From: Eledone cirrhosa
Taxonomy: Eukaryota
Assembly (NCBI GenBank): GCA_964016885.1
Contig: OZ024756.1
Location: forward strand, 15,314,001-15,378,000
Length of the DNA stretch: 64,000 nucleotides
Reading direction: 5' to 3'
Below the pieces are notes generated by a model that saw only the letters and a program-made list of their open reading frames with translations, did no database searches and was not told the origin of the DNA. Each line of letters begins with the position of its first letter. Positions within the stretch are counted from its first letter, which is position 1. Both the position numbers and the translations under genes were made by a program. Of this stretch, positions 8,041-61,354 are shown piece by piece.

Positions 8041-8278
8041 TGATATTCTACCAGTCCTACAAAACCCTTCAATCTTCAAAGGTCTCATCTCCAAGATGGT
8101 CGAGGTAATTAAAGAACATGCTCCTGATGTTGAAATAATTGTTGGACTTGAAGCCAGAGGTTTCCTCTTTGGACCCCAAATTGCCATTGAACTAAACGTT
8201 GGGTTTGTCCCCATCCGTAAGAAAGGAAAGTTACCTGGGCCAACGCAAGTAGTTGATTACAAACTTGAATATGGCGAG
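8041..8278 (+). CDS. APRT: APRT coding exon 2 (DILPVLQNP...GLEARGFLFGP...RKKGKLPG...LEYGE)
   Basis: LEARGF, RKKGKLP and LEYG motifs; AG at 8039-8040 and GT at 8279; frame joins exon 1 (TG|T). Confidence 0.96.
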
Positions 8279-8329: not shown

Positions 8330-8500
8330 GGGTGATGGATCGGCAGTATTGCGAGAGCATCGGACACCATGCTTCGTGACATAGAGTTACATCCTTTTAC
8401 GTTCTGAGTTCGAATCCCGCTGAAGTTATCTTTGCCTTTCATCTTTACGAGGTCGATAAAATAAAGTACCAATAATGCAAAATTGTTGACCTTGTGCCAT
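8330..8500 (+). mobile_element. SINE family A (diverged)
   Basis: A/B boxes plus core. Confidence 0.75.
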
Positions 8501-8932: not shown

Positions 8933-10188
8933 ATACATGCACCATCACATGCACACATAGGTGCACAGACATGCATAGGTAAAGACCCCCTTTGATCACG
9001 AATGACCATGGGATTTGCACCTTAGAAAGTTCCCCTCTAAGGCACAAGTCTGGACAAGGTTGTTTGTTGAAGACCAGCAGCCTCCGCTCTCCATGCCATC
9101 GATGTTATTCAAGGGAAAGGCAATGACTGATACAGATTAGCACCAGTGATGTAACACATTTCTACAGCTGAAAAAACTGGAGCAATGTGAAATAGTCTTG
9201 CTCAAGAACACAACGCATCACCTGGTCTGAGAATTGAACATCTGATTGAACGTGGAGGTGCCACAGAAAAAAAAAAGCACCCAGCACTCACTGTAAATGA
9301 GGTTGGGTGTTAGGAAGGGCATCCAGCTGTAGAAATCAAGCCAGAATCAGTTCCCGTATGAGCAAGGCATGGTCAGCCGACCGGACACTGCCCACAACAG
9401 GACAACCCATCTAACCCATGCTAGCATGGAAGAACGGACGTAAAACGGTGATGATGATGATGATGATTGCAAGACCAATGTTCTAACCATTAAACCATGT
9501 GCCTTTATAACAGACATACAGACATATAATCATCCAGCCATGCGTGTTACATCCAGTAAATCGTTTCTGTTGATGTAATTAATGTGTAGTATGGTGTTAA
9601 AATGTGCTCACCTGGCAATCGTGCTTTTATTCCAAGCAGGTAGTTTTGTCCTCGTGGTGTCCCCAGCCCCAGCATGGCCTCAGCATGTGGGCTGGAACAC
9701 ATATTAGAGTAATTAATATAGTCTATATATGTGGTTAGAGTAGACTCTCTCACCCTCTCTCTATATCTCATATGTGGTTATGTCCAGTAAAATATGTTTT
9801 GTATTTCTACTAAAGGCATTGTCCGAGATACAAACCTCTATCAGTATAGTACATATATATATATCATCATCATCGATTAACGTCCATCTTCCACGCTGGC
9901 AGGGGTTAGACGGGTCCTATTTTCAGGCAAGTTGAGTTGGGTGACTGTCTCACTCAAATCGGGGTGTTTCTGGCTGGTTTTCTACAGCTGGATGCCCTTC
10001 CTAACGCCAGCCATCCACACACATTTACATATATATATATATGTGTGTAAATATATATATAGGTAGAGAAAGCTCTCCCTCTCTCTTTATAGTTTTTATA
10101 TATATATGTTGCTAGAGTAAGCTCTCTCTTGTTCTCTCTCTCTCTGCTGTATTGTTAACTCAGTAAAATATCTATGTTTCTACTAAAG

Positions 10189-10267
10189 GCATCATTTGAG
10201 ATACAAGCCTCAGCTCTCAAGGAAAACCAGAAAGTTGTTATCATTGATGACCTGTGCGCCACTGGAG
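10189..10267 (+). CDS. APRT: APRT coding exon 3 (ASFEIQASALKENQKVVIIDDLCATG)
   Basis: PRPP-binding motif VVIIDDLxATGG; 79-nt exon with AG/GT boundaries. Confidence 0.95.
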
Positions 10268-10365
10268 GTAACTGTTTTATTTATTTTGTTAGCTTATTTG
10301 CTTCTATTGTTATTGTATATGTATTTATAGAGCTACTCATATATATATATATATATTGTATATGT

Positions 10366-10589
10366 ACAGGCATTGCTTTATATCTGGAGATCTCTCTGCA
10401 CTTGTCATCACATGGTACCAAGGGCCCAGCACTATGTGTCAATAATTGTCACAGGTGTAGTGTTTGTACCAGAGTTTTCAAGTCGCTGGCTGGACTAAAA
10501 AGTCACACTCGTTCAGTGCATCGGTTAGGGGTTATCCTACATGGATATAAAGTAGTGGCCGTACTCGAAAACGAGTTGGCAGCCACCAT
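10366..10589 (+). mobile_element. 3' fragment of the ~600-bp element in an APRT intron
   Basis: Similarity to 60640-60863. Confidence 0.7.
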
Positions 10590-10698
10590 ATATATATATA
10601 TATGCATACACACGGCTCTGTAGCATACTTATTTTACATTGAGCTATTTTCATACTTGTAATTAGGTAATATTTATTATTACCTACATTATATATATA

Positions 10699-10767
<69 letters not shown>

Positions 10768-10771
<4 letters not shown>

Positions 10772-11213
10772 AGAAGGTGAGTAATATTGTAGAACAATAA
10801 AACTATGCATATATCAGATAGGAGCACTCAACAGTTGGTAGAATGGAGTATATATAATAAAGAAGAAATTAAAAGATGGTTAAAAGAGTTCCATATATTT
10901 TATTATGCGCATTTCGAATACAAAATCATCCTGGGACAAAAATTGTGTTCTCATCAGATAACATAAGGTAACATGATATGAGGTATAATAGCACTTGTTT
11001 ACAGGAAAGTGCTAAGTCTACATATGGATATATTAGCTAAAATTCTGATATGTAGACTTAACACATTCCTGTAAACAAGTGCTATTATGCCTCATATCAT
11101 GTTACCTTATTTTATCTGATGAGAACACAATTTTTGTCCCAAGATGATTTTGAATTCGAAATGCGCATAATAAAATATATGGAACTATTTTAACCATCTT
11201 TTAATTTCTTCTT
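10768..11213 (-). mobile_element. Fold-back Penelope-like pLTR, family H1 (arms about 10860-11024 and 11048-11213)
   Basis: About 165-bp inverted arms, each with an HHR, plus a single-copy 3' tail; related to 19922-20343, 24457-24854, 53179-53334 and 61130-61265. Confidence 0.8.
11108..11177 (+). ncRNA. Hammerhead ribozyme (H1), sense strand in APRT intron
   Basis: UAUUUUAU-CUGAUGA-GAA..UUC-GAAA-UGCGCA-UA-AUAAAAUA; perfect 8-bp stem I, palindromic stem III, AUA triplet; mirror copy on - strand at 10896-10965. Confidence 0.8.
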
Positions 11214-11264
11214 TGTATATATATACATATATAGAAGTGGTTACACAACAGTTAGTTCACCATA

Positions 11265-11304
11265 CCGAGAACAATTGTTTCACCTTAGTGGATCTTCAGC
11301 TCGG
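11265..11304 (-). ncRNA. Minimal type I hammerhead ribozyme
   Basis: CCGAG-CUGAAGA-UCCACUAAGGU-GAAAC-AAUU-GUU-CUCGG; 5-bp stem I and palindromic stem III. The + copy at 12039-12075 lacks 3 core nt. Confidence 0.75.
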
Positions 11305-11454
11305 AATGGGCATGGTTATAGGAACAGGAGGGACAACCGTACGAATGCGCATGAGCAGAAACTCGGTCACTTCACACAGGCAATACTAGACTGCGTGCGA
11401 GAGAGGTGTAAGGGAGATAACTGCGAAAGTCCGAAAAGTTTTTAGGTTGAAAGC

Positions 11455-11880
11455 TTGCCCCTTCAACAGCAATGCAACACACAAGCTGTAATCTATGAAG
11501 CTGTGGTCACTTCCAACCGACCAAACGAACCACAGGAGGTCAAATCCTATGTGGGCATGGTGGAGGGCTGATTCAAGGAACGTTTCCTGAACCACCAGTC
11601 TACCTTCAGATACCTGGACAGACGTTCATCCACGAGACTCGCGAGCCACGTATGGTTCCTCAAGGACTCAAGTATAGACTACTCCATTCAATGGAAAGCC
11701 ACCACTAAGTCCAAGCCATATGCAAGAGGAAATCCGACGTGTGGCTTATGTATTGACGAACGAATAACTATTCTAAAGAGATTACGCAATAGTGATTGCC
11801 TAAATACGAGAAGTGAATTTTTCACACGTTGTCCACATGTCGCCAAACACCTATTGCATAACTACAAGGCTCCAGACTGA
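11455..11880 (+). pseudogene. Penelope-like GIY-YIG endonuclease C-terminal domain (one in-frame stop)
   Basis: Manual translation: LPLQQQCNTQAVIYEAVV...KSYVGMVEG*FKERFLNHQSTF...TRLASHVWFLK...IQW...CGLCIDER...LNTRSEFFTRCPH...KAPD*; matches the VIY/YVG/R/CxxC/LNxR/CxH pattern. Confidence 0.88.
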
Positions 11881-12169
11881 TTCTTTGTAATTTTATTTTC
11901 AACCTAAAAACTTTTCGGACTTTCGCAGTTATCTCCCTTACACCTCTCTCGCACGCAGTCTAGTATTGCCTGTGTGAAGTGACCGAGTTTCTGCGCATTC
12001 GTACGGTTGTCCTTCCTGTTCCTATAACCATGCCCGTTCCGAGCTGATCCACTAAGGTGAAACAATTGTTCTCGGTATGGTGAACTAACTGTTGTGTAAC
12101 CACTTCTACCTAACTCGTCCCTTGGACTGAGTGCTCTACCACTACGGATATTATCTTCCAGTGTTCCAC

Positions 12170-57265: not shown

Positions 57266-57640
57266 GGTAAGATACAAGGGAGGTAACACTTGAGAGACCA
57301 CAGTCAATTCAGAATAGAAATAGAAGCGCAATAATTTCTTCTGGTTGACTCCAGGGATCACATTTCACTGAAATACAATATAGTCAGCAATTTGAAAGAT
57401 ACTTCTAGACCTATTAGTCAGGCCTAAGCCATTTAATCAAAATATATTTCTTCACATGGGGACAACCGCCAAAGCAATCGAGTCGTGTGTTGAGGCAGTG
57501 CTTATTCGAAGCTAATTGTGAGAGTATCCACCATTTTTCGGAATTACACAGCCGACAAAATTTCGACCCATTTACGTAGGCGGTAGATCTTTCCAAAATA
57601 CTCCATTTTATGGGAAAAGGCGTGCTTTTTCGTCGACGTA
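57263..57640 (-). mobile_element. Second Penelope-like GIY-YIG C-terminal fragment plus 3' region, in (TA)n
   Basis: ORF 57414-57596: AYVNGSKFCRLCNSEKWWIL...LNTRLDCFGGCPHVKKY...PD*, collinear with the end of 11455-11880. Confidence 0.8.
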
Positions 57641-57960
57641 AATATATATATATATATATATTTACATTTCATATACTCTATCATATATATATATACACAG
57701 AGATATCCACGGTAAATTGTGGGGTCTAGTCATTGCTTTTGACAACAGCTGGTGATATGCATGTAAGTAAATATTCTCTTTATCTGCTATTTTGTAACTA
57801 ACCTTACATAGATCGATATCGAAGTATAGTTACTATGTATTATCATCACATAGAAACGATCGTAAAGCAGTGAAGTATATTTCTAATGACTTGATTTTTT
57901 ATTTCATTGTTTTAACATATATATATATATATATATATATAGATAGATAGATAGATAGAT

Positions 57961-61060: not shown

Positions 61061-61167
61061 TTTCCATTACCAATCCACTTATAATACATATACATGTATA
61101 TATATATACATGTATATATATATACATGTAATATATAAGATCAAAAGATGGTTAAAGGAGTTCCATG

Positions 61168-61237
61168 TATTTTATTATGCGCATTTCAAAACAAACATCA
61201 TCATGCAATAATATTTGTGTTTTCATCAGATAAAACA
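61168..61237 (-). ncRNA. Hammerhead ribozyme (H1b), solo arm within 61130-61265
   Basis: Near identical to 24491-24561. Confidence 0.7.
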
Positions 61238-61354
61238 GGAGAACATGATATGAAGGCTAAAAAACATACATGTATATATATGTGTATATATATGTACATG
61301 TGTGTATGTATATACACATAAATATATATATATTTATATATATTTATATATATT

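Follow-up and report, generated by a model that had tools for sequence, protein, structure and literature searches.

The window analysed here, a 64,000-nt stretch of the 3.0-Gb Eledone cirrhosa assembly, carries an APRT-like gene on its plus strand, in which exons at 8041–8278, 10189–10267 and 14213–14352 (+) join into an APRT-like frame that ends in a stop codon. The first two of these coding exons align with Pfam profile PF00156 at positions 6–71 (E 4e-5) and 75–100 (E 5e-4), respectively; both matches fall below the cut-off, and splice sites and frame also place the exons. The last coding exon, assigned from its frame and stop codon, had no Pfam match on its own in the profile search. The start of the middle exon at 10189 is set by the acceptor AG, and this exon carries what we take to be the PRPP-binding IIDD motif. 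A diverged (86%) duplicate of this acceptor site and the first bases of the exon lies 373 nt upstream (9804–9838 versus 10177–10211) and is possibly a cryptic or dead pseudo-exon. The GT–AG intron 10268–14212 (+), read from splice sites and frame, contains the fold-back element that is our subject.

Anatomy of the fold-back

The element is centred on an inverted repeat with 178-nt halves (10859–11036 and 11037–11214) that are 93% complementary. On its left flank lies a (TA)n-rich target tract (10689–10769), in which no target-site duplication could be read around the insertion. From there rightward come a one-sided 'tail' of ~88 nt (10770–10858, −), which aligns with the element's 5′ leader at three other loci (L067, L068 and L077); an inverted, 5′-truncated pseudo-LTR (pLTR) forming the left arm (10859–11025, −); a 22-nt centre filler (11026–11047, +); and a direct, 5′-truncated, tail-less pLTR forming the right arm (11048–11214, +). 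The filler is an exact copy of 12268–12289 (+), a flanking template ~46 nt past a (TA)n tract, and short microhomologies lie beside it. Minus this centre, the arms measure ~166 bp each with 7 mismatches, and nearest-neighbour folding gives the fold-back a minimum free energy of −247 kcal/mol. The original prediction of a ~165-bp fold-back in an APRT intron therefore holds, as do its coordinates; the unit also reaches left to 10770, outside the span first described, and the left arm alone bears the tail. Against the family majority, the left arm has two private substitutions and the right arm five, and one of these changes leaves a G·U pair on the transcribed strand. The arms have mutated independently, with no preference for retained pairing on that strand.

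Hammerhead motifs in both arms

The intron and the predicted ribozyme share the plus strand, so the hammerhead does lie on the transcribed strand, as first proposed. Located by descriptor match and folding, this type I motif (11108–11177, +) combines the CUGANGA (here CUGAUGA), GAAA and NUH core with helices I–III, including an 8-bp stem I and a 2-bp helix III with a palindromic loop (palindrome at 11161–11168), and its predicted cut falls after A11169 (11169/11170). It had been called intact-looking, which is true of its core; the motif nevertheless has two private substitutions, one of which (11153) costs a stem II pair, and the family base stands at that position in 227 of 229 first-mate-plus DNA reads. 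The mirror motif in the left arm (10896–10965, −; descriptor match and family alignment) likewise keeps its core and has a private stem I mismatch at 10962. Judged as a conserved regulatory ribozyme, the fold-back carries private mutations in both of its motifs. The mirror is transcribed first, as had been noted, but this order is uninformative on selection because the unit is two-fold symmetric, and a transcript from either strand would meet an antisense copy first.

The descriptor matched 41 times in 560 kb of real sequence and 0 times in 3 shuffles, and a loose core pattern matched 30 times in the window versus 2.4 expected. Across unrelated families within the genome, stems I and III vary in sequence and keep their pairing. 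Of 281 Rfam matches in the window, the 150 listed include no hammerhead family, and the 17 in 10780–12160 include none either; within the APRT intron, the helix III palindrome does not recur in another sense copy. Rare changes fell in the core at 3/456 versus 78/5514 elsewhere (p 0.29, with loci picked by their exact core omitted), a difference short of significance; another count, 1/571 versus 93/6131, was dropped because half of its loci had been chosen by exact match over the core.

The motif resembles the hammerheads, or min-HHRs, of Penelope-like elements (PLEs) as described in the available text of PMC4209133, which are of type I, lie within the pLTR, have a 2-bp helix III with a palindromic loop and occur as dual copies on opposite strands, 100–700 bp apart. 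It differs from them in its longer stem I and its large, branched loop II, and it stands here as a predicted motif.

Other such motifs occur across the window. Those in related subfamilies comprise three more complete Penelope pLTR fold-backs with hammerheads (19915–20360, 20545–20832 and 24438–24819), a tiny fold-back of the pLTR 3′ end plus tail, with hammerhead (53162–53299), and a solo pLTR stub with hammerhead (61113–61253). Among hammerhead-like motifs of unrelated families, two (43366–43431 and 43894–43959, +) are directly repeated 528 nt apart, a retrozyme-like or partial tandem arrangement, and further ones lie at 23350–23400 (+), 51190–51250 (−), 53595–53660 (+), 52255–52295 (−) and 18857–18895 (−).

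The parent is an abundant Penelope-like family

By sequence comparison, the arm is the pLTR of an endonuclease-bearing (EN+) Penelope-like element. It is a high-copy repeat, with 1542 first-look candidates genome-wide, and a 25-mer from the hammerhead has 640 exact matches in the genome versus 0 for its reversed control. Longer copies (L029/L031 and L012/L032) extend upstream into an endonuclease and reverse transcriptase (RT) coding region. In L032, RT is followed by endonuclease and then by the same pLTR downstream at 98% identity, which is the contiguous order, with a C-terminal GIY-YIG domain, that defines EN+ PLEs. Compared with an 806-aa protein, P0001, L032 scores 46–58% over RT pieces and 25% over the endonuclease. 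P0001 itself has a weak PF01541 match (E 0.012, below the cut-off), and Pfam matched the parent pieces to neither an RT nor an endonuclease; the RT and GIY-YIG motif labels on the parent element are ones that we assume. At L067, L068 and L077, a pLTR lies upstream of the ORF start and runs into tail, leader and ORF start, and the first 88 nt of their leader are the tail that the APRT copy carries on its left arm only. Two more marks of EN+ PLE insertions recur in the family: an inverted, 5′-truncated copy beside the 5′ end (21 of 55 distinct loci) and an optional one-end tail that matches pre-ORF sequence (19 of 21 fold-backs).

These observations bear on whether the structure is real and whether it is an element in its own right. 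We regard both an assembly artefact (a fold-back read chimera) and an independent MITE or retrozyme as highly improbable. A chimera would be in keeping with the read depth of 0 at the centre junction (11020–11040), although the runs come from an unproven individual or species and need not span that junction; against it, the arms carry substitutions of their own (2 and 5), the unit has unlike ends and its centre was copied from a template. As for an independent MITE or retrozyme, copies of this sequence at other loci run on into DNA that codes for RT and endonuclease, and the APRT copy is not tandem. A non-LTR retrozyme was rejected on similar grounds: that class consists of direct tandem units, and only two inverted copies are found here. 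The metazoan non-LTR retrozymes reported in the accessible part of bioRxiv 10.64898/2026.07.22.740005 are likewise non-coding, PLE-derived and equipped with a type I hammerhead, whereas the APRT unit is the inverted, truncated end of a coding element.

Diagnostic motifs make the parent family look more like the Hydra clade than the Neptune clade. With Hydra elements, as characterized in the available sections of PMC8557442, it shares DKT, a CxCX5C linker, CxxC before the conserved E and CxH after the conserved N, GIY and YIG boxes without a cysteine pair between them, (TA)n targets and a canonical hammerhead; it departs from them in having RWI in place of RWK (4 of 21 copies), in the presence of a GLKF string and in an estimated length of ~3.5 kb versus <3 kb. 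Among 21 long copies scanned, DKT was found in 6, the linker, as CNCX5C, in about 10 (17 raw matches including repeat noise), CxxC..E in 17 raw and CxH in 15 raw. Neptune was defined by a CX2-5CxxC linker and by CCHH with two cysteines between GIY and YIG, and was rejected for a parent with a CxCX5C linker and one cysteine between these boxes. The Poseidon element PAc of Anolis (PMC11167929, in part) also has a tail that adjoins the ORF start, an AT-rich target and extension of both strands; here, the ORF starts ~200 nt past the hammerhead rather than within it.

Between its RT and endonuclease regions, the parent ORF encodes a run rich in asparagine (L032 1869–2687, −), which resembles the N-rich inserts of rotifer Penelope elements described in the portion of PMC3846280 that we cite. 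Within the window, 57456–57668 (−) holds a further GIY-YIG-like endonuclease remnant that ends in (TA)n (tblastn E 6e-4).

A neighbouring element of a second family

The adjacent element (11232–12170) belongs to a second Penelope-like family and includes an endonuclease fragment, with its tail on the direct arm. It consists of an inverted pLTR (11232–11452, −) whose hammerhead-like core is intact near 11267–11299 by repeat comparison and core pattern; a broken fragment of a C-terminal GIY-YIG-like endonuclease (11453–11880, +), recognized by translation and by tblastn to P0001 (E 1e-10) and without a Pfam match; and a direct pLTR (11881–12170, +), which on arm alignment has a private 3-nt core deletion near 12046, a 6-nt deletion elsewhere and a ~62-nt tail (12109–12170). 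The neighbour had been said to fit the same pattern, with a core deletion in the sense copy and an intact antisense copy. Both of these features are present, but a purposeful pattern is not borne out. There are four differences between the arms, including the 6-nt deletion outside the core in the sense arm, the core deletion occurs in 1 of 38 arms examined, and the chance expectation that one event falls in the core is ~12%, so the deletion appears to be a private event compatible with chance. The neighbour's arms could also pair, which would make the deletion unneeded under the shielding idea.

Head-to-head copies are a standard shape of the family

Our census held 57 rows on record, 28 found by similarity (including the APRT locus) and 29 that were the first exact matches on one contig; two loci occur in both sets, which leaves 55 distinct ones. 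Head-to-head fold-backs were present at 21 of the 55, and the opposite adjacent geometry at none (0/55). Exactly one tail accompanied 19 of 21 fold-backs; in two, the partner barely exceeds the tail. Within the exact-match subset, both hammerheads were complete in only 3/29, and 22/29 had no adjacent inverted arm. Fold centres vary among loci and cluster at a CATATG palindrome; several are themselves palindromic (L018, L021 and L060), and among 20 centres scanned a long, non-repetitive flank match was found once, at the APRT locus. Many direct and inverted family arms end at one CATATG palindrome, near window position 11048; possible explanations are that this site is a hotspot of microhomology with TA targets or that the element RNA has its 5′ end there.

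An inverted, 5′-truncated copy with a one-sided tail in a TA target is a published PLE insertion structure (PMC8557442, in part), and head-to-head is given as the most frequent arrangement in the text available from PMC3846280. The APRT element agrees with the EN+ PLE insertions of these sources (including Pen2a_Av, PMC3846280) in its 5′ truncation, adjacent head-to-head inverted copy, one-end tail, microsatellite target and junction microhomology. Where it differs is in arms too short for an ORF, a tail of ~88 nt versus 30–40 nt and a 22-nt centre copied from the flank.

A proposed route to the fold-back

The sequence comparisons show the family of the APRT fold-back, its RT- and endonuclease-coding parent, its one-sided tail, its copied centre and its independently decaying arms. 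In our judgement, it very probably represents two head-to-head, 5′-truncated pLTRs of an abundant EN+ PLE inserted in (TA)n, and is likely a dead by-product of insertion; the duplex is predicted to lock its hammerhead, which is likely idle. In the route that we propose, the element protein would cut the TA tract on both strands, and each 3′ end would act as primer on a pLTR RNA, with reverse transcription beginning at either of two sites, one of which includes the tail and the other of which omits it. The two cDNAs would end prematurely, and microhomology would join them at the centre, where 22 nt would be copied in from the nearby flank. Each arm would then read as cDNA from its own flank inward, and the junction as templated end joining of two primed cDNAs. 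We infer twin priming at both DNA ends; in the available account of PMC11167929, a Penelope protein given AT-rich DNA in vitro cuts both of its strands and extends them, and two start sites delimit the tail. One feature sits poorly with this explanation: the tail, at ~88 nt, exceeds the 30–40 nt usually described.

A different origin of the inverted arm, by self-priming or fold-back copying of one template or by inverted duplication after insertion, strikes us as unlikely. Palindromic junctions have been read as self-priming on an antisense template (PMC3846280, in part), and palindromic centres exist here at L018, L021 and L060. A tail on a single arm, which is the inverted arm in the APRT element and the direct arm in its neighbour, fits separately primed cDNAs better, and a flank-copied centre fits repair joining of two cDNAs.

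Locking, cleavage and editing

In the APRT pre-mRNA, the first-made arm would pair with the second, so that neither hammerhead would fold. Computation agrees with the original prediction that the long duplex sequesters the ribozyme, because the hammerhead fold inside the hairpin lies about 100 kcal/mol uphill (ddG about +100 kcal/mol, nearest-neighbour), and upstream structures are described as blocking ribozyme assembly in the part of PMC2817708 consulted. The fold is also disfavoured with no partner present, by +8.7 kcal/mol for the motif alone, +10 for a single arm and +6.6 for a parent-like copy, in energies that exclude tertiary contacts, Mg2+ and proteins. According to the text available from PMC4209133, the class with a palindromic helix III is dimer-dependent, with no cleavage by the single motif and little by dimers, and the Anolis Penelope hammerhead is reported to have cleaved only with protein (PMC11167929, in part). 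The hammerhead is thus likely idle even when unlocked, as its fold is disfavoured alone, its class depends on dimers and it has lost a stem II pair at 11153. According to the relevant part of PMC2995048 (citing Dye 2006 and Fong 2009), cleavage of an intron by a slower hammerhead did not stop its splicing.

The duplex in the APRT intron probably has little to lock. That the arrangement serves to protect the pre-mRNA was not borne out: it is a standard head-to-head insertion (21/55), it is symmetric, and the motif is predicted to be unfolded even alone. Locking is more likely a predicted side effect of insertion geometry, and the models do not support a protective purpose; a lone motif would need a second copy and probably the element protein too. 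Intronic host ribozymes such as CPEB3 (PMC10919898, in part) resemble the APRT case in having a self-cleaving-type motif on the intron sense strand. CPEB3 is described as highly conserved in mammals in the accessible text of PMC8233481, whereas the APRT motif is a decaying copy of a high-copy repeat.

The hairpin would probably be edited like other young inverted repeats and then removed with the intron. By analogy, it is likely an ADAR/Dicer substrate, a generic trait: young inverted repeats are named as the main ADAR targets in metazoans (PMC9989829, in part), and Penelope inverted repeats yield siRNAs in flies (PMC3681739, in part). Editing had also been suggested to release or destroy the ribozyme, and here the two halves of the suggestion part ways. 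A switch in which ADAR editing unwinds the duplex, so that the hammerhead is released and cleaves the APRT pre-mRNA, could draw on a long, A/U-rich duplex with 129 adenosines and on that same preference of metazoan ADARs for young repeats (PMC9989829), yet it is exceedingly improbable. When 10–75% editing was simulated with the hammerhead spared (12 random trials per setting), the gap stayed at least 72 kcal/mol with G as proxy and at least 42 kcal/mol with a non-pairing proxy, the latter even with 75% of the other adenosines non-pairing. Loss of core adenosines would come more readily: in simulation, only 3% of molecules retained all five of them at 50% editing. A freed motif would still be without a dimer partner, and the arms bear no sign of selection.

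Nor was an A-to-G footprint seen in the DNA copies: changes numbered 10 A>G and 13 T>C in 47 arms, G·U pairs 62 versus 49 A·C in 22 intronic pairs, and none of 17 family loci plus 4 window fold-backs was strongly polarized. Four sequencing runs over 11020–11212 revealed family-level variation only. Paralogues give apparent A-to-G differences in DNA reads (at 11061 and 11142), which makes them a trap for RNA-editing calls.

Strand of intact hammerheads in introns

If hammerheads cut host transcripts, intact copies on the sense strand of introns should be depleted. We counted strands over 1.62 Mb in 25 gene spans whose strand was known from myosin and dynein exon chains; the spans include C3 (a 50-kb myosin, continuity unconfirmed) and any nested genes. 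Each insertion was one event; for the seventh dynein, 3:1 hits were collapsed by hand, and the rule for pairing differed slightly. In myosins (560 kb, 18 gene spans), unpaired, fully intact hammerheads stood at 1 sense to 9 antisense (p 0.02) and paired ones at 11:10. In dyneins (1.06 Mb, 7 genes), unpaired intact copies stood at 3:6 in six genes and 2:1 in the seventh, or 5:7 (p 0.77), and a core-only count in the first six gave 8:8. Pooled, the unpaired intact class stood at 6 sense to 16 antisense (p 0.052) against 20:16 for the paired (Fisher 0.056). The proposed strand bias of intact intronic hammerheads thus appeared in myosins and was not replicated in dyneins. A raw first count of 3:15 was set aside as inflated by tandem copies and long-range pairs, and a doubtful match, C5, is included in a count of 4:17 and omitted from later ones.

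We treat the sense deficit of unpaired intact hammerheads as a lead, not a result. It could reflect a selective filter in which the fold-backs are by-products, but unshielded intact sense hammerheads in introns of expressed genes are mildly harmful and purged, through trans-dimer cleavage or with the help of the element protein, whereas duplex-masked copies survive. Such a filter would be compatible with the insertion mechanism proposed above, and we hold it doubtful. The myosin contrast speaks for it, together with an antisense lean in 9 of 10 genes with unpaired intact events and a ratio of 7:5 for degraded unpaired copies (both in the first two sets), with 4 of 5 control repeats balanced and with PLE ORF remnants lacking skew; Xenopus retrozymes are also under-represented in introns, with strand not analysed in the part of bioRxiv 10.64898/2026.07.22.740005 that bears on this. 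The dynein counts weigh against it, as do six unshielded intact sense events that are tolerated, one of which (D1m 39563) shares the helix III palindrome of the APRT motif. Strong skew to the sense strand is also seen in a non-ribozyme repeat, so skew need not mean cleavage, and the class definitions were fixed after the first set had been viewed. Lower axonemal dynein expression could, post hoc, explain the difference between the gene sets. For the by-product reading that we prefer, the pooled skew is a point against, as it hints that unshielded sense copies may be purged and that shielding is maybe not neutral.

The skewed control repeat lies at 8331–8480 of the window (163:83 raw hits, sense to antisense) and presumably carries a tRNA B-box-like motif. 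In the C3 myosin intron (L136, gene-sense offsets ~7.5–9.5 kb), a tandem run of six 310-bp hammerhead units lies antisense to the gene and meets a single sense unit head to head, an array that is retrozyme-like with Penelope geometry. Two copies of a dynein heavy chain with equal scores, inverted tail-to-tail (G000:C19:6705821-6811056), are either a recent duplication or an assembly artefact.

Wider meaning

The APRT locus alone matters little: its insertion type is known, and hundreds of such stubs exist. Its one-sided tail and flank-copied centre are of value as genomic traces of inverted-arm formation in an apparently abundant Hydra-clade family. If unshielded sense copies proved to be depleted from introns, this would inform on in vivo cleavage by metazoan Penelope hammerheads, for which evidence is described as absent in the available text of PMC4209133, and no RNA-seq ends at the predicted hammerhead site are reported in that of PMC11167929. 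We found no paper on intronic strand bias of PLE ribozymes within the open-access literature. It is improbable, in our estimate, that Penelope hammerheads cut host pre-mRNA in vivo enough for counter-selection, with the fold-back as a built-in safety catch; were it so, genome-wide strand counts would provide evidence, for the first time, that Penelope ribozymes are active in vivo. Elsewhere in the window, a tandem repeat of 66 bp at 16362–16799 has an open frame, and GC skew is extreme over the 4 kb at 26000–30000, where it reaches −0.95.
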